Assembly: GCA_005889405.1 (NCBI GenBank) | Contig: VBFY01000057.1 | Span: 17,475-81,474 of the forward strand | Reading direction: 5' to 3' | Length of the DNA stretch: 64,000 bases | Source of the DNA: Chloroflexota bacterium | GTDB taxonomy: Bacteria > Chloroflexota > Limnocylindria > P2-11E | Part shown: positions 6,652 to 26,254 of the stretch, one piece after another | How positions within the stretch are numbered: the stretch's first letter is position 1 | How the letters are laid out: each line of letters opens with the position of its first letter | Position numbers and translations under genes: made by a program | Notes under the pieces: generated by a model | The model's input: only the letters and a program-made list of their open reading frames with translations | Databases searched by the model: none | What the model was told of the DNA's origin: nothing

Positions 6652-6987
6652 GTGGACGACTGCCTGTTCTGTCGCATCGTGGCGGGGAAGCTCCCCGCGA
6701 CGGTCGTCTACGAGGACGATGACGTGATGGCCATCAACGACGTCTTCCCTCGCGCGCCCTTCCACGTCCTGGTCGTGCCCCGGAAGCACGTCGAGCGGCT
6801 CTCCGACCTCGAGGACGAGCCTCTGGGTGGCCGGCTGCTGCAGGTGGTGCGCAAGGTCGCGCGGCAGGGCGGGGTCGGCGACAACTTCCGGCTGGTCGTG
6901 AACAACGGCGACAGCGCCGGCCAGAACGTCCTCCACCTGCACCTCCACGTCCTTGGCGGTCGTGATTTCGCCTGGCCGCCCGGATGA
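6652..6987 (+). CDS. HIT-family (histidine triad) nucleotide hydrolase
   Basis: CLFCRI..., HVLVVP, and the HLHLHVLGG histidine triad. Confidence 0.9.
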   Translation: MDDCLFCRIVAGKLPATVVYEDDDVMAINDVFPRAPFHVLVVPRKHVERLSDLEDEPLGGRLLQVVRKVARQGGVGDNFRLVVNNGDSAGQNVLHLHLHVLGGRDFAWPPG

Positions 6988-7053
6988 TACAAAAGCGCGT
7001 ACCTTTATCACCTTGCGCCGGAAGCACGGCTGGCCGAGGGCCAGAGGCCGAGG

Positions 7054-7092
7054 AGATGAGGGCAGCGGAGCCTGCCCGATTATCATGGCCCT
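7054..7092. repeat. copy A of a ~38-nt conserved stem-loop element
   Basis: AGATGAGGGCAGCGGAGCCTGCCCGATTATCATGGCCCT; near-identical to 25881..25917 apart from the loop (CGGAGC here, GAAGG there) and one indel. GGGCAG/CTGCCC forms the stem. Confidence 0.5.
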
Positions 7093-7096
7093 CGTC

Positions 7097-7128
7097 GGCC
7101 TCTGTGGGAGGCCGGCGTTCTGTTCTCT
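7097..7128 (+). terminator. putative intrinsic terminator after the HIT gene
   Basis: GGCCUC-UGUGG-GAGGCC hairpin followed by the U-rich GGCGUUCUGUUCUCU, just upstream of the rpsU start. Confidence 0.35.
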
Positions 7129-7158
7129 GGCGACCAGTCTCATAAGACCGAAGGGCGG

Positions 7159-7341
7159 GTGATCCATAGATCGTTGTCTGAAGTGATCGTCGGTGATGGC
7201 GAGTCATTCGAGGCCGCCCTTCGCCGTTTCAACAAGAAGATCCAACAAGCCGGGATCCTCGCAGAAGCCCGTCGACGGGAGTTCTACGAGCGCCCCGCCG
7301 CGCGCCGCAAGCGCAAGGAAGCCAAGCGGCGCAAGCGCTAG
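7159..7341 (+). CDS. rpsU: 30S ribosomal protein S21
   Basis: [32 protein letters not shown]... matches the S21 signature. GTG start; alternative GTG at 7183. Confidence 0.85.
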
Positions 7342-7357: not shown

Positions 7358-7900
7358 ATCACAGCCCCGCTGAAACAAAGGCTCGAGAGCGATCTTCGGG
7401 CCGCCATGAAATCGGGCGACACCTTCCGCCGCGACACGCTGCGCTTCGTGCTGGCCGCGATCCAGCGCGAGGGAGTCGACCGTCTTCAAGCGACCATCGA
7501 GCGTCTGGTCGCGGAGGGAAAGGACGAGGCGTCGCGTCAGGCGCATATCGCCGAGCACCGTCCGTCCGATCTCGATGACGTCGGGGTCCTCGACGTGCTT
7601 CAGAAACAAGCGAAGATGCGACGCGACTCGACCCTGGCCTTCCGCAAGGGTGACCGGCCCGAGCTCGCGGCGAAAGAAGAGCAGGAGCTCGCGATCATCC
7701 AGAGCTATCTGCCGACGCAGATGTCGGATGCGGAGCTGCGCTCGATCGTCGAGCGCGTCGTCGCCGAGACGGGCGCCGCGGGCCCGCGCGATATGGGCAA
7801 GGTCATGCCCAAGGTGCTCGCCCAGACGAAGGACCGCGCCGACGGGAAGAAGGTCGCGGGGCTCGTCGGCGCGATGCTGAAGGAGAAAGCATCGTCATGA
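7358..7900 (+). CDS. yqeY: GatB/YqeY domain protein
   Basis: PLKQRLESDLRAAMKSGD...IQSYLP...GKVMPKV is YqeY-like and follows rpsU as in Firmicutes. No ATG/GTG/TTG precedes the conserved N-terminus; ATC 7358 or CTG are the only in-frame options, and the first ATG (7406) would truncate the domain. Confidence 0.7.
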   Translation: MTAPLKQRLESDLRAAMKSGDTFRRDTLRFVLAAIQREGVDRLQATIERLVAEGKDEASRQAHIAEHRPSDLDDVGVLDVLQKQAKMRRDSTLAFRKGDRPELAAKEEQELAIIQSYLPTQMSDAELRSIVERVVAETGAAGPRDMGKVMPKVLAQTKDRADGKKVAGLVGAMLKEKASS

Positions 7901-9933
7901 GCGTGCCCGCGCAGATCACGATCCTGATCCCCGACCCGGACGAGATGATGTTCGTCACCGGCAACAACGACGCGAACATCGATCGCATCGAGCGGGAGTT
8001 CGCGGTGAAGATCGTGTCGCGCGGCGCGGAGCTGCGCATCATGGGCGACCCCGGGAATGTCGCGCGCGTCGGCGAGCTCGTCAGCGCGATGCGGACGCTC
8101 TCCGATCGCGACGAGAATCTGCGTAAGCCCGCGCTCGAGCGGCTCATCGATGAAGCGAAGGACGCGCCGGTCGCCGCACCCGAGCAACTGCGTGAGGTCG
8201 TCGCGACGACGGTGCGCGGGAAACGCATCACCCCGCAGTCCGCGAACCAGCGGAGTTATGTCGAGGCGATCCGCAGCCACGATCTTGTCTTCGCGACAGG
8301 TCCCGCCGGGACCGGAAAAAGCTATTTGGCGGTCGCGCTCGGTGTCGCCGCACTACGCGATCGCAAGGTCGCGCGTCTCATCCTCACGCGGCCCGCGGTG
8401 GAGGCGGGGGAGCGGCTCGGCTTCCTACCCGGCGATCTCACGGAAAAGATCGACCCGTACCTGCGCCCGCTCTACGACGCGCTCTACGAGCTCATGCCGC
8501 CGGAGCGCTTCACGCGCGCGATGGAACGCGGCGAGATCGAGGTGGCGCCGCTGGCGTTCATGCGCGGACGCGCGCAGCCGGTGTTCAGCAAGGTCCTCAC
8601 GCCGACCGGGTTCACCACCATCGGCGATCTCTCGGTCGGAGATCAGGTCATCGGCTCGGATGGACGGCCGACGACGGTGCTCGGTGTATACCCGCAGGGA
8701 CGTAGGCCGTTATTTCGCGTCGGGACTCAGGACGGAGCATCGACGCTCGCCTGCGGCGAGCACCTGTGGGTCGTGGCGACCGCAAGCGATAAGAGGCATG
8801 GCAAACCGTTCCGCATCGTGCAGACGCGGGACATGGTGGGACGCCTGCGCGTGGCGCATCAGCACCGCTACGAGCTGCCGCTCCTCACGCGTCCGGTGGA
8901 GTTCGATCGGTACCACATCCTCATGGACCCGTATGCTCTTGGTCTGCTGCTCGGCGACGGCTGCGTGACCACGTCGACGACCCCGTCATTCACAACCGCG
9001 GACCCGAGCCTCGTGACCGCCCTCGCGTCGCGCCTTCCGGACACCGAGATCTTTCGTAAGGGCGAGATCGAGTACGTCCTGCGCCGAAGGGGCGGCGCGC
9101 GAGGCGGACCGAGGATCGTGAACCCGGTGACCGATCTGCTGCGCAAGCTTCAGCTGGCTGGCAGGCACTCGGCAGATAAGTTCGTGCCCACGGAGTACCT
9201 TTGCAACATCTCCGAAGTACGGCTCGGAGTGATGCAGGGTCTGCTCGATGCGGACGGCGGCCCGGTCACGCAGGATGGACGAACGTGCCGCATCCAGTAC
9301 ACGACGACATCACCCCGACTCCGGGAGGACATGGTCTTCCTGGTGCGCTCGTTTGGCGGCGTTGCGTACTGGCGGACACGCCGTGCCGAAGGTCGCAAGC
9401 CCGGTCGTGCGCGCGGTCGCGGTCTTCACAACCGCGCGGACGCGTATCAGGTCGAGATTCGTCTGCCAGCCGGCATCGTGCCGTTCAGGCTCGCGCGCAA
9501 GCGCGATCTCTATGACACGCAAGGCGGTGGCCGGCCGATGCGCTTCATCGACAGCGTCGAGCCCGCGGGCGAGCACGAAACGGTCTGCATCAAGGTCGCG
9601 GCTCCCGATTCGCTCTACATCACCGACGACTTCCTGGTAACGCACAACACCCTCAACGAAGCGTTCATCATCCTCGACGAAGCGCAGAACGCGACGCCGG
9701 CGCAGATGAAGATGTTCCTCACGCGCCTCGGGTACGGTTCGCAAGCTGTTGTGAACGGCGACATCACGCAGATCGACCTCGATAAAGACCAGCGCTCCGG
9801 TCTGGTCGTCGGACGCGAGATCCTGCGCGGGGTCGAGGGCATCGCCTTCGTTGACTTCAACGAACGCGACGTCGTGCGCCACGAGCTCGTTGCGCGGATA
9901 GTCCGGGCGTACGATCGGTACGAAAAGAAGTGA
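7897..9933 (+). CDS. phoH: PhoH-family ATPase, interrupted by an intein
   Basis: Walker A GPAGTGKS. The conserved AFMRGR | TLNEAFIILDEAQN block is split by a 359-aa insertion. Exteins total ~319 aa, typical for PhoH. Confidence 0.9.
   Translation: MSVPAQITILIPDPDEMMFVTGNNDANIDRIEREFAVKIVSRGAELRIMGDPGNVARVGELVSAMRTLSDRDENLRKPALERLIDEAKDAPVAAPEQLREVVATTVRGKRITPQSANQRSYVEAIRSHDLVFATGPAGTGKSYLAVALGVAALRDRKVARLILTRPAVEAGERLGFLPGDLTEKIDPYLRPLYDALYELMPPERFTRAMERGEIEVAPLAFMRGRAQPVFSKVLTPTGFTTIGDLSVGDQVIGSDGRPTTVLGVYPQGRRPLFRVGTQDGASTLACGEHLWVVATASDKRHGKPFRIVQTRDMVGRLRVAHQHRYELPLLTRPVEFDRYHILMDPYALGLLLGDGCVTTSTTPSFTTADPSLVTALASRLPDTEIFRKGEIEYVLRRRGGARGGPRIVNPVTDLLRKLQLAGRHSADKFVPTEYLCNISEVRLGVMQGLLDADGGPVTQDGRTCRIQYTTTSPRLREDMVFLVRSFGGVAYWRTRRAEGRKPGRARGRGLHNRADAYQVEIRLPAGIVPFRLARKRDLYDTQGGGRPMRFIDSVEPAGEHETVCIKVAAPDSLYITDDFLVTHNTLNEAFIILDEAQNATPAQMKMFLTRLGYGSQAVVNGDITQIDLDKDQRSGLVVGREILRGVEGIAFVDFNERDVVRHELVARIVRAYDRYEKK
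8572..9648 (+). mobile_element. intein with LAGLIDADG homing endonuclease domain inside phoH
   Basis: Block A-like AQPVFSKVLTPTG. Two LAGLIDADG motifs (YALGLLLGDGCV and RLGVMQGLLDADGG). C-terminal block DDFLVTHN followed by +1 Thr. Host extein sequences are contiguous when the insertion is removed. Confidence 0.85.
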
Positions 9934-22886: not shown

Positions 22887-23468
22887 CTAGATGCGCTGCT
22901 GCGTCCTGCCTGATGGGAACTGCGCGAGGACTCCCGTCTGCACCAGCGCGCGGACCAGCCAGGCCGAGCCGATGCCCGCGATGATCACGGCGGAGACGAG
23001 CATGAACGCGCCGATGACGAGCTGATCGACCAGGGCAAGCTCGGCGTAGTAGAGCGGCGTGTCGTGGATCCACGCGCCGACCGCCGCAAGCGCCGCCGCG
23101 AGCGCCGCCGCGAAGAGATCGAAGCGCCGGTAACGGAACAATGCGAAGCCGAGCTCCGCACCCGCCCCCTGGAACAGACCCGAGAGTGCGGCGTCGAGAC
23201 CCCACTGCGATCCGAGGACGAGCGACACGCTCGCCGCGACGAGCTCCGCGAACAGCGCGGCGCCGGGTTTCTGCACGACGAGGCCCGCGACGACACCGGC
23301 GGCGAGCCAGGTGCCGTACAGGATGTTCTGCGCCGGCGGGACTGCCGCGAATGCGGGACCGGTCGCGGCCCAGAGCGCGTTCCAGGCCCAGAACACGACG
23401 CCGAACGCGACCGCGATCGCCGCCGTGACCACGATGTCGACCGTACGCCAGGACATTGACCGATTCAC
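22887..23468 (-). CDS. ykoE: ECF transporter S component (YkoE-like; thiamine/HMP-related by context)
   Basis: ~190 aa, 5-6 TM helices; GTG start (GGAGG-6nt-GTG) overlaps the TPK stop by 4 nt. It is the first gene of the S-A-T trio behind the TPP riboswitch. Confidence 0.65.
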   Translation of the reverse strand: MNRSMSWRTVDIVVTAAIAVAFGVVFWAWNALWAATGPAFAAVPPAQNILYGTWLAAGVVAGLVVQKPGAALFAELVAASVSLVLGSQWGLDAALSGLFQGAGAELGFALFRYRRFDLFAAALAAALAAVGAWIHDTPLYYAELALVDQLVIGAFMLVSAVIIAGIGSAWLVRALVQTGVLAQFPSGRTQQRI

Positions 23469-24115
23469 GCGACACCTCCAGTTGCTATTTCGATGACGAG
23501 CAGCACGCCCCGGTCGCACGCGACCGAAGCGGGCCGAGACATCACGACGTTCGAGAGGCCGCGAGCCGCGCCGAAGGGCAGCGTCTCACCGGCCAGCGCG
23601 TAGCGAAGACCCTGCGTGCGTACGCCCTCGGCGTTGCCGCGCAGTGCGAGCAGGGTGACGACATCGCCGACGCTCCCAGCGAGCTCTAGGTGCTCGCCTC
23701 CATGCAGCGGCCGCGCGACGACGTTGCCGTGCACGGCACGCAGTCCGCGCCCGCGGTACGCGTCGTCGGCGAGGAGCAGCGTGTTCGCGAGCTCGTGGTC
23801 GAAGCGCTCTCCGCCGAAGATCCCGAGCAGCACGATGTCGTCTGGCTTCGTCTTCAGCACATGTGCGACAGCGAGCTCCAGATCGGACTCGTCCTTCTCA
23901 GGGGAGAACGGCAGCACCGTGACGCCTCGGGCGCTGAACTCTGCGGCGCGCTCGAGCCCCAGCGAGTCGAGATCGCCGACGATCGCGTGGGGAAGGACAT
24001 CCCACCGCTCGAGCGCGAGCGTGCCGCCGTTCGCCGCGACGATGAGGTCCGCGCCCTTCAGCTCGGCGCGGTCGCGCGGATCGACGTCGCCGTGAGCGAC
24101 CACGACGGCCTTCAA
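23465..24115 (-). CDS. thiN: thiamine pyrophosphokinase
   Basis: MKAVVVAHGD..., IVAANGG, DLDS and KDESDLELA motifs; TTG start right after the riboswitch terminator. Confidence 0.8.
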   Translation of the reverse strand: MKAVVVAHGDVDPRDRAELKGADLIVAANGGTLALERWDVLPHAIVGDLDSLGLERAAEFSARGVTVLPFSPEKDESDLELAVAHVLKTKPDDIVLLGIFGGERFDHELANTLLLADDAYRGRGLRAVHGNVVARPLHGGEHLELAGSVGDVVTLLALRGNAEGVRTQGLRYALAGETLPFGAARGLSNVVMSRPASVACDRGVLLVIEIATGGVA

Positions 24116-24146: not shown

Positions 24147-24161
24147 AGCGAGGTCTCACGC

Positions 24162-24251
24162 GTTCCGACTCCCTACGCTGACATTACTCAGATCAGGTTC
24201 TGGGGTCTGCGGATCACCGCACTCTCAGCGCCCGTGGGCGCTCCCCCGTCG
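24162..24251 (-). promoter_or_regulatory. TPP (THI-box) riboswitch aptamer
   Basis: Minus strand: GGGGAGCGCC...CUGAGA...ACCCCAGAACCUGAUCUGAGUAAUGUCAGCGUAGGGAG. This matches GGGG.GCC / CUGAGA / ACCC / GAACCUGAUCUGGAUAAUGCCAGCGUAGGGA nearly base for base. Confidence 0.85.
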
Positions 24252-24349
24252 TATTCAGTTGTCGCCCTCAGTGTACGCGCGTAGCTCCTGACACGCGAAC
24301 GCGGACGCACGGCGACGATGCCGCACGTCCGCGATGCGACCGCGTGGTG

Positions 24350-24484: not shown

Positions 24485-25714
24485 TTAGATCGTGTACGCG
24501 GCTTCGCGGTGCTGCGACGCGTCGAGTCCGAGGACTTCCTCATCCTCCGGCACGCGCAGTCCGACGAAGACATCGATGAGCTTCAGGATCACGAAGGTCA
24601 TGACCGCGGAGTACGTCACCGAGGCGAGGACGGCGACCGCCTGCACTCCGAGCTGCGCCGGGTTGCCGAAGGCGAGGCCGTCGGCCGCGCCCGCGTTCAC
24701 CGCCACGGTGGCGAAGATGCCGGTCGCGAGCGCACCCCACATGCCGCCGATGCCGTGCACGCCGAAGACGTCGAGAGCGTCGTCGACCTTCAGTCGCTTC
24801 GTGAGCTGGATCCCGACGTAACAGAAGGTGCCGGCTCCGAGACCGATGAGGATCGCGGCGGACACGTCCACGTAGCCGGACGCCGGGGTGATCGCGACGA
24901 GTCCGGCAACCGCGCCGGCCGCGGCACCGAGCACGCTTGGCGCGCCCTTGTGCAGCCAGGACACGGTCATCCAGGTGAGCGCGGCCATGGCGGCCGCGGT
25001 GTTCGTGACGACGAACGCGTTGGCCGCGAGGCCACCGGCGTTGATCGCGCTGCCCGCGTTGAAGCCGAACCAGCCGAACCAGAGCAGCGACGCGCCGAGG
25101 ACGGTCATGGTCGCGTCGTGTGGCTCTATCGGCTCGAGGCCGAGACCCTTGCGCCGACCGAGCACGAGCGCGGCGACGAGCGCGGAGACCCCGCTGGTGA
25201 TGTGCACCACGGTGCCGCCGGCGAAGTCAAGCGTGCCGAGCATCTTGAGCCAGCCACCGGTGCCCCAGACCCAGTGCGCGACAGGGTCGTACACGAACGT
25301 CGCCCAGAGAAGCGTGAACACCACGAACGCCTTGAAGCGCTTGCGCTCGGCGAACGCGCCGGTGATGAGCGCGGGCGTGATGACGGCGAACATCATCTGG
25401 AAGACCATGAACCCGAGGTGGGGAACAGTCGGCGCGTAATCGGGGTTCGGCGTCTGTCCGACGCCCCGAAGCGATAGCCAATCGAGCCCCCCGATGAGAC
25501 CGCCGTGATCAGGACCGAACGCCAGCGAGTACCCCCACAGCACCCACTGCACGCTGATCAAGCACAGGATGAAGAAGCTGTGCATGATCGTCGCGAGGAC
25601 GTTCTTGCGGCGAACGAGCCCGCCGTAGAAGAAGCCGAGCGCGGGCGTCATGAGCATGACCAGGGCAGCGGACGCGAGGAGCCAGGCGGTGTCCCCGGCG
25701 TTGATGTTCTCCAT
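24485..25714 (-). CDS. amt: ammonium transporter
   Basis: Amt/MEP family: MENINAGDTAWLL..., 11 TM helices, FGFNAGSA and twin-His context. Start taken at the ATG of MENIN (track ORF extends upstream in frame). Confidence 0.9.
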   Translation of the reverse strand: MENINAGDTAWLLASAALVMLMTPALGFFYGGLVRRKNVLATIMHSFFILCLISVQWVLWGYSLAFGPDHGGLIGGLDWLSLRGVGQTPNPDYAPTVPHLGFMVFQMMFAVITPALITGAFAERKRFKAFVVFTLLWATFVYDPVAHWVWGTGGWLKMLGTLDFAGGTVVHITSGVSALVAALVLGRRKGLGLEPIEPHDATMTVLGASLLWFGWFGFNAGSAINAGGLAANAFVVTNTAAAMAALTWMTVSWLHKGAPSVLGAAAGAVAGLVAITPASGYVDVSAAILIGLGAGTFCYVGIQLTKRLKVDDALDVFGVHGIGGMWGALATGIFATVAVNAGAADGLAFGNPAQLGVQAVAVLASVTYSAVMTFVILKLIDVFVGLRVPEDEEVLGLDASQHREAAYTI

Positions 25715-25787
25715 GCCGCTAGCCTGCGCAGCCGGCGTAGGGCGGTCAGTAGCGCAACGGGAGCGGTCGGTTTCGGTTGGGTTGTGG

Positions 25788-25831
25788 GCGCCGCGCAAAG
25801 GCCGCGGGACTGGCAGACCTTTGCGCGGCGC
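25788..25831. promoter_or_regulatory. 14-bp perfect inverted repeat upstream of amt
   Basis: GCGCCGCGCAAAGG-(16 nt)-CCTTTGCGCGGCGC, ~75-115 nt upstream of the amt start. No U-tract on either strand, so not a simple terminator. Confidence 0.4.
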
Positions 25832-25880
25832 GGGAACTAGTGTCGGATCACTGCGGCGTGGGCGAAGCCACACGCCAAGC

Positions 25881-25917
25881 AGATGAGGGCAGCGAAGGCT
25901 GCCCGATTACATGCCCT
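25881..25917. repeat. copy B of the ~38-nt conserved stem-loop element
   Basis: AGATGAGGGCAGCGAAGGCTGCCCGATTACATGCCCT. Its 3' end overlaps the stop codon and last two codons of the downstream minus-strand gene; stem GGGCAGC/GCTGCCC with GAAG loop. Confidence 0.5.
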
Positions 25918-26254
25918 TGGCGAGACCGATGACGTTGCCCTCGGGGTCGGCGAACATCGCGAGCTCGACCGGACCGGCCTTCGTCGGCGGCATGACGGTC
26001 TTGCCGCCCAGCTTCTCGACCTTCGCGAGCGTGCCCTTCAGGTCCTCGGTCTCGATGTAGAAGGTCACGCTGCTGCGGCCATTCCGCGACGGGCCGATCC
26101 CGCCATTGATTCCGTGACCGTTGGCGCCGGTGTCGACCATCGCGTAGTCCTCCGGCGCGTCGGTGAGCTTCCAGTCGAAGGCCTTGGCGTAGAAGTCGCG
26201 GAGCTTCTTGTTGTCCTTCCCGATGACCTCGAAGTGCGTGACGGGATATGCCAT
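25907..26254 (-). CDS. VOC/glyoxalase-family protein
   Basis: 115 aa, MAYPVTHFEVIG...; paired beta-alpha-beta-beta-beta modules typical of glyoxalase/bleomycin-resistance fold. Confidence 0.65.
   Translation of the reverse strand: MAYPVTHFEVIGKDNKKLRDFYAKAFDWKLTDAPEDYAMVDTGANGHGINGGIGPSRNGRSSVTFYIETEDLKGTLAKVEKLGGKTVMPPTKAGPVELAMFADPEGNVIGLAKGM

Follow-up and report, generated by a model that had tools for sequence, protein, structure and literature searches.

A probably mobile, two-hairpin repeat of about 60 nt at gene ends in Limnocylindria-type Chloroflexota

The window, a 64-kb stretch of a Chloroflexota genome with a G+C content of 68.5%, contains two look-alike stem-loop motifs, AGATGAGGGCAGCGGAGCCTGCCCGATTATCATGGCCCT at 7054-7092 and AGATGAGGGCAGCGAAGGCTGCCCGATTACATGCCCT at 25881-25917, both on the + strand as initially annotated. 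Both motifs are probably copies of one small, non-autonomous, REP/MITE-like mobile repeat that belongs to a clade of Limnocylindria-type Chloroflexota. The family displays precise insertion, a target preference, a bias in phase relative to stop codons, tandem arrays and structural constraint. The unit seems to be an ordinary kind of genomic parasite, from soil Chloroflexota, and the family is apparently undescribed, as literature searches found no description of it.

Anatomy and distribution of the repeat unit

The initial annotation assigned the motif an extent of about 38 nt, which is too short: it is the 3' half of a unit of about 57-60 nt, and the portion then seen corresponds to hairpin 2 with its GATGA and GATTA flanks. 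On the + strand of the window, the unit reads YTA|CTGCGGCG-hairpin 1-AAGCAGATGA-hairpin 2-CCCGAT|TA, with the end CCCGATTA and with bars marking the junctions; the line-up of loci gives YTA|CTGCGGCGTGSGCGAAGCSCACACGCCAAGCAGATGAGGGCAGC-loop-GCTGCCCGAT|TA, and the consensus is TACTGCGGCGTGSGCGAAGCSCACACGCCAAGCAGATGAGGGCAGC-N3-4-GCTGCCCGATTA. Hairpin 1 (~22 nt) contains a 2-nt bulge and is extended by an outer CTGC/GCAG stem, and hairpin 2 (~18 nt) lies between GATGA and GATTA. The unit has neither terminal inverted repeats nor coding capacity. Copy A is flanked by a HIT gene (6652-6987, +) and rpsU (about 7159-7341, +), and copy B by a VOC/glyoxalase gene (25907-26254, -) and the ammonium transporter gene amtB (-). 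Of the proposal that both copies sit at gene 3' ends, the part concerning copy B stands, including the overlap with the stop codon of VOC (on the - strand, 25907-25909 reads TAA), but copy A lies in the HIT-rpsU spacer and not at a stop codon.

Table 1. Features of the two copies of the repeat in the 64-kb window.
Feature	Position	Strand	Basis
Copy B, complete unit, 59-nt insertion CTGCGGCG...CCCGATTA	25851-25909	+	covariance model, 83.4 bits; missing from relatives' VOC-amtB spacer
Copy B hairpin 1, GGCGTGGGC GAA GCC-ACACGCC, 2-nt bulge	25855-25876	+	sequence; family pairing 93.5%, compensatory changes
Copy B outer stem	CTGC 25851-25854 paired with GCAG 25879-25882	+	sequence
Copy B hairpin 2, GGGCAGC GAAG GCTGCCC, flanks GATGA / GATTA	25887-25904	+	sequence
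VOC TAA stop, donated by the unit's terminal TTA	25907-25909	-	comparison with relatives
VOC original TGA stop, now beyond the inserted unit	25848-25850	-	unit-less relatives: ATG TGA TC...
Copy A, full-length decayed unit, HIT-rpsU spacer	7025-7083	+	covariance model, 51.1 bits, model positions 1-62; intact orthologues L020, L033, L041
Copy A hairpin 1, diverged, GGCTGGCC GAG GGCCAGAGGCC	7028-7049	+	pairing kept by other bases; alignment and sequence
Copy A hairpin 2, GGGCAG CGGAGC CTGCCC	7060-7077	+	GATGA 7055-7059, GATTA 7078-7082

Searches of the window converge on the same pair. The pattern GATGAGGGCAGCNNNGNCTGCCCGATTA, with up to three mismatches allowed, matches twice, at the two annotated motifs (shuffle mean 0, n = 100); a covariance model applied without filters matches 25849-25910 and 7025-7083 (scores in Table 1), the runner-up scoring 13.5 bits; and a structural search for GATGA-stem-GA yields no further convincing case. 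Likewise, nhmmer and covariance-model searches for additional or diverged copies recover only these two in the window and none in 17 loci of relatives (L061-L077). The density is thus low, with 2 copies per 64 kb.

Alignment of 28 copies shows that 95% of cells pair, with 93.5% in hairpin 1 and 98% in hairpin 2, whereas slid controls pair at 28-39%. Three pairs in hairpin 1 and the outer stem exhibit compensatory changes (GC/CG/UA, GC/CG and CG/UA), and the compensatory cells number 17 versus 5.7 in shuffles, none of the 500 shuffles scoring as high. Hairpin 2 is invariant because the search pattern demanded it. The difference in loop sequence that had been taken for covariation between the two copies is plain variation in an unpaired loop; covariation analysis across copies, as then suggested, does reveal true compensatory changes, but these reside in hairpin 1. 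Counts of G.U versus A.C in the 28 copies comprise too few cases to indicate the folding strand, and the constraint on the hairpins fits recognition of single-stranded DNA as much as it fits RNA.

A wider search for copies, also suggested in the initial annotation, places the unit far beyond the window. An exact-pattern scan with one genome per species gave 12 loci, 7 of them in Chloroflexota/'Candidatus Limnocylindria' MAGs; L005-L008 and L011 were rejected as family members, being chance matches within coding sequence of unrelated phyla. The same scan of metagenomes gave 40 further loci, and nearly all scan loci carry the same 60-nt unit. Altogether the unit is found at about 30 different sites, with unrelated flanks, in Limnocylindria-type Chloroflexota MAGs and metagenomes, and with this the alternative of coincidence or local duplication falls. 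BLAST of the unit against plasmid and phage collections returned no match.

Units occur singly or in head-to-tail arrays with a period of 60 nt, such as the 2.1 copies in L027 and the 2.8 copies in L013, where the array runs into the contig end. Adjoining units share TTA(C), so that n units come with n+1 copies of TTA(C). One site holds a single unit in L042 and three in L013/L038; array-size differences of this kind are the only indication of recent activity, because copies persist at orthologous sites across species. Derivatives are also observed, including internally deleted micro-units CTGCGGCG(TG)CCCGATTA (L003, L022, L029 and L039), solo hairpin 2 (L001 and L047), and L046, which likewise has a solo hairpin 2 and corresponds to L049 without the 44 nt situated between two GATGA repeats. 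Separately, a weak covariance-model match of 20.6 bits in L025 (10819-10868, -; CTACTGCGCCGTCGCGAAGCAAGACGGCAAGCAG...) keeps the CTACTGC and AAGCAG flanks around another hairpin 1 stem (GCCGTC/GACGGC) and is devoid of hairpin 2; it may represent a subfamily that has diverged or else a copy that has decayed.

Insertion sites and stop-codon phase

As judged by alignment of filled with empty sites at two loci, insertion of the unit is precise. The first locus is that of copy B, where the neighbourhood glnA, ArsR, AHSA1, VOC, amtB is conserved among VOC homologues. Read along the gene, the window sequence is ...GCCAAGGGCATG[TAATCGGGCAGCCTTCGCTGCCCTCATCTGCTTGGCGTGTGGCTTCGCCCACGCCGCAG]TGATCCGAC...TTCCCGCGCCGCGCAAAGG, i.e., ...GGCATG[TAATCGG...CCGCAG]TGATCC, and the unit-less L061-63, whose VOC protein is 87% identical, read ...GCCAAGGGGATG|TGATTCCCGCGCCGCGCAAAGG, i.e., ...GGGATG|TGATTCC; L064 and L068/69 are likewise empty (ATG TGA TC...). 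Because the relatives read ATG|TGA, the 59 nt directly follow the last sense codon and directly precede the original TGA, with an ambiguity of 2 nt (GT). Homologues down to 61% identity retain the same VOC C-terminus, ...GLAKGM, and the unit is present at this site in 8/8 same-species contigs. At the second locus, L002, the unit occupies the space that separates the gene for a 2-oxoacid:ferredoxin oxidoreductase beta subunit from a gene convergent to it, and in L078 and L081-83 the same two stop codons lie 2-4 nt apart with no unit.

Several observations accompany these two loci. The VOC-amtB spacer harbours a 14-bp perfect inverted repeat, GCGCCGCGCAAAGG...CCTTTGCGCGGCGC (25788-25831), which is kept with or without the unit (L061 is unit-less) and could serve as a native terminator or, given its place upstream of amtB, as a nitrogen-regulatory site. 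Three VOC homologues (P0018, P0020 and P0022) have gene calls with altered C-termini, P0018 having a frameshift and a translation that runs across the insertion (...GQPSLPSSAWRVASPTPQ). The oxidoreductase beta gene of L002 (3939-4886) encodes 315 aa and has many close homologues of ~485 aa with Hint/intein domains; an intein is polymorphic in this gene across the clade. In the window itself, a PhoH-like ATPase gene (7897-9933, +; 678 aa) is interrupted by an intein, and by Pfam its relative in L070 is a 756-aa PhoH protein with Intein_splicing and LAGLIDADG_3 domains, that in L074 being intein-free with 303 aa.

The site of copy A has a more complex history. Orthologous HIT-rpsU spacers (L020/L025, L033 and L041/L048) hold intact units between conserved GCGTAACTTTAC and TATCATGAC, and L033 resembles a clean insertion, GGCGGCTA|unit|TCATGACC, when compared with GGCGGGTA|TCATGAC in L070, L072 and L076. 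However, the nominally unit-less L070-L077 contain unit-like fragments, such as 13/13 nt of CGGAGGCTGCCCG in L072 and CTGCGGG...GGAGGCTGCTCG in L074, and the HIT-rpsU spacer is therefore no simple empty-site test. We read it as an old insertion that probably decayed differently by lineage. A native hairpin at 7093-7117, followed by TTCTGTTCTC, is separate from copy A and is found in all relatives with or without the unit. It belongs to a stretch of ~110 nt (7081-7193, +) from TATCAT to the rpsU start that is very strongly conserved in 8 relatives and also includes the block CAGTCTCATAAGACCGAAGGGCGGGTGATCC; this stretch may combine the HIT terminator with an rpsU leader or autoregulatory element, and the start codon of S21 is likely TTG at ~7165 (M-S-E-V-I-V...).

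Reconstruction of 27 distinct sites yields the target YTA|Y, with Y at 26/27, T at 23/27, A at 26/27 and, after the bar, Y at 25/27 (C 17, T 8); on the opposite strand it reads R|TAR. The preference is not absolute, as the VOC insertion occurred in TCA|C. At both junctions 2-3 nt are identical (GT at VOC, TA or TAA elsewhere), which is equally well compatible with a target motif, a TA duplication or the crossover core of a recombinase. After insertion, both junctions again resemble YTA|Y.

The relation to stop codons that had been noted for copy B is real, and across the family it is far more systematic than was suspected. The triplet that lies past the unit, in the direction of the gene, is TAG at 13 sites, TAA at 12, TGA at 2 (one site counted twice) and another triplet at 3, and among the ORFs listed a long one terminates precisely with the unit's TAA at no fewer than 16 sites. 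Any open frame would end at a fixed TAA, and the coding frame was therefore checked by codon-position G+C: the converging gene is in frame with the unit's TAA in 16/21 cases, compared with an expected 1/3 (P about 7e-5). In the opposite orientation, a gene entering from YTA would, on reading of the sequence, gain 12 codons and stop at the TGA in GATGA. In L052 (unit ~2421-2482, -), a converging 2481-nt ORF is out of frame with the unit's TAA by codon-position G+C; it possibly continues through the whole unit and stops just past it, in which case the repeat would add a translated extension to the C-terminus.

Alternative explanations and known systems

Known RNAs and regulatory sites were also considered. 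Rfam 15 at its gathering threshold gives no match at either copy, and E-value scans of both sites give only sub-threshold matches to generic hairpins. The one family found elsewhere in the window is a TPP riboswitch (24153-24257, -; 67.7 bits, which exceeds the gathering threshold), with the gene for a thiamine pyrophosphokinase (23465-24115, -) downstream of it; in relatives, the gene that follows encodes an ABC_cobalt-type transporter. A K-turn, C/D-box or hammerhead-like reading of GATGA-stem-GA was rejected on account of misfitting core nucleotides, the lack of Rfam support and the dispersed-insertion behaviour, and an rpsU or amtB regulatory leader on account of relatives with the same gene order and no unit. 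The core motifs of integron attC sites, R''(RYYYAAC)...R'(GTTRRRY), are absent from the unit consensus, and the unit consists of two separate hairpins rather than one long imperfect hairpin.

A host-selected RNA element at 3' ends, acting as a terminator, an mRNA-stabilizing hairpin or a stop-proximal attenuator of translation, with mobility being incidental, is rather unlikely. It would account for the start of the unit exactly at the stop of the converging gene at most sites, for structure maintained by compensatory changes and for copies kept at orthologous sites across species (the rpsU site; L009/L034), and ribosome stalling is reported for REPs within 15 nt of a stop codon (PMC12306157). 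Intrinsic terminators, however, carry a U-tract, which the unit hairpin lacks: scans for a hairpin plus U-tract detected none at copy B (25650-26000), and near copy A only the separate native hairpin at 7093-7117. Close relatives without the unit keep their native downstream hairpin, copy A is oriented opposite to its neighbouring genes and lies upstream of rpsU, and the arrays, internal deletions and decay resemble neutral turnover. The earlier suggestion of a bidirectional terminator or 3'-end processing element is consequently not supported as the primary nature of the motif, given that there is no U-tract and that VOC keeps its own downstream hairpin. A double-stranded operator, i.e., a palindromic transcription-factor site regulating the neighbours, is highly improbable, even though GGGCAG-N4-6-CTGCCC is palindromic and copies B and A lie upstream of amtB and rpsU, respectively: the genes flanking the ~30 sites are unrelated to one another and most units occupy the space where two genes converge, no regulon-like set of functionally related downstream genes emerges, the unit is missing from relatives whose gene order is the same, and it has two different hairpins and forms tandem arrays. 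The protein-binding motif once envisaged survives only as probable recognition of the hairpins by a recombinase. Chance similarity or a local-duplication remnant within the window, to which the mere 2 copies in 64 kb might point, has a probability close to nil and is already refuted by an expectation of 0 chance matches and by dozens of differently flanked copies in other genomes. By contrast, the proposal of a small REP-like intergenic repeat is supported by the ~30 unrelated sites, the empty orthologous sites and the differences in array copy number.

Within the preferred reading of a mobile repeat, a close comparison is with REP, BIME and REPIN sequences. These are likewise short G+C-rich intergenic hairpin repeats that lie mostly between convergent or co-directional gene ends, often cluster in tandem and persist vertically, and their termini can supply the stop of the flanking ORF; GTAG REP termini often do so, and REPs are present in Chloroflexi (PMC3733652). 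The unit contains an imperfect, hairpin-forming palindrome in the range of 20-50 nt, as REPs do. The GTAG class is, however, defined by a conserved tetranucleotide, mostly GTAG, directly 5' of the palindrome (PMC8266576), and the unit carries no such tetranucleotide on either strand: its tag is 5'-YTAC-TGC-hairpin 1, or hairpin 1'-GCA-GTAR-3' on the other strand, and directly before hairpin 2 stands GATGA or TAATC. Moreover, the unit combines two unlike hairpins in direct order and forms only head-to-tail arrays, with no inverted pairs. Because the 5' tetranucleotide and inverted pairs are missing, it does not belong to the GTAG REP class. REPs reach hundreds of copies per genome; for the unit, 2 copies were counted in 64 kb and none in the 17 loci of relatives. 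RAYTs act on REP hairpins (PMC8266576). A RAYT gene flanked by the repeats would mark a REPtron, and none was seen with three Y1 baits in the window and 52 loci. The stop-proximal REPs of E. coli also have a stable hairpin within 15 nt of the stop, that of the unit beginning 2 nt after TAA, but any effect of the unit on expression would be a side effect that does not explain its spread. By analogy, the unit may work like REP/REPIN or PATE-type miniature elements.

IS608 inserts 3' of TTAC, and its left and right hairpins are nearly identical, with cleavage sites 19 and 10 nt away. Elements of the IS200/IS605 group (IS608) and PATE-like elements resemble the unit in having subterminal hairpin ends without terminal inverted repeats (the ends of the unit being CTGCGGCG and ATCGGGCAG) and in inserting beside a short motif, YTA|C in the unit; the right end of the unit, GATTAC, recreates this motif and could seed tandem copies. 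IS608 insertion uses hairpin ends (PMC3201880 and PMC5027513). As for targeting, the unit has YTA(C) as its left flank at 26/27 sites, two empty sites and 2-3 identical nt at the junctions. The hairpins of the unit differ from those of IS608 in being unlike each other and only 0-5 nt from the junctions, which speaks against an HUH enzyme, and around the unit neither tnpA/tnpB nor a full-length parent was found in the scanned loci. MITEs that target TA (Correia/NEMIS, Stowaway-type, or derived from IS630/Tc1-mariner) are also small non-coding insertions flanked by TA, often at gene ends, but they possess clear terminal inverted repeats, which are absent from the 28 aligned units, and one documented insertion of the unit is at TCA|C.

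A minor yet real possibility is that the repeat is mobilized by another enzyme with a TA-core crossover, namely a serine recombinase (IS607-like), a DEDD enzyme (IS110/IS1111-like) or a TA-duplicating DDE transposase. TA (or YTA) at both junctions, n units accompanied by n+1 TTA(C), the ambiguity of exactly 2 nt at VOC and the failure of three Y1 baits to detect a Y1 gene in the window and 52 loci agree with such an enzyme; the insertion into TCA|C rather than TA does not, the unit lacks the terminal inverted repeats of a DDE enzyme, conserved hairpins with compensatory changes are typical HUH substrates, and a recombinase of these kinds did not turn up next to any of the copies in searches that used Y1 baits only.

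Proposed mechanism and significance

The simplest account of the siting is that YTA|Y is preferred at the DNA level. YTA|Y sites that tolerate insertion in a genome of 68% G+C are mostly TAG or TAA stops on the other strand (R|TAR), and the unit lands directly after the last sense codon, ahead of the old stop. The unit's own end restores an in-frame TAA, and the protein is therefore unchanged; selection would then retain the orientation that gives an immediate stop, so that the biases in stop codon and orientation would both stem from selection against gene disruption. The two G+C-rich hairpins would be recognized on single-stranded DNA by an enzyme acting in trans, for which our guess, by analogy with IS200/IS605 and RAYT systems, is a Y1/HUH transposase. 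Arrays may arise because the right end, GATTAC, recreates the target. A tblastn search with three Y1 baits returned nothing below E = 1 in the window and 52 loci, these baits revealed no transposase near the copies, and in none of the scanned loci does a gene lie between hairpins 1 and 2, as it would in an autonomous parent. By analogy with what is reported for REPs, a hairpin 2 nt after the stop could possibly slow termination or stabilize the 3' end of the mRNA.

It is quite unlikely that the repeat is a "stop-codon-safe" element homing to R|TAR by a mechanism outside the known REP/RAYT, IS200/IS605 and MITE systems, or, alternatively, a co-opted, termination-coupled regulator. The former could have evolved harmless ends, with a TAA at one and, 12 codons inward of the other, a TGA in frame; the latter may follow from a hairpin that begins 2 nt past the stop.

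Collectively, the look-alike stem-loops are explained as one repeat family and call for no annotation as riboswitch-like or terminator RNA. The 60-nt consensus and the covariance model can be used to mask or annotate the repeat in Limnocylindria MAGs, where it breaks assemblies, with arrays at contig ends, and causes mis-called C-termini such as that of P0018. If the mobilizing enzyme is found, the YTA|Y target and the hairpin needs would inform how hairpin-recognizing transposases choose their sites. The family offers a natural example of how a small element may persist in a gene-dense, high-G+C genome by landing on stops and replacing the stop that it displaces.
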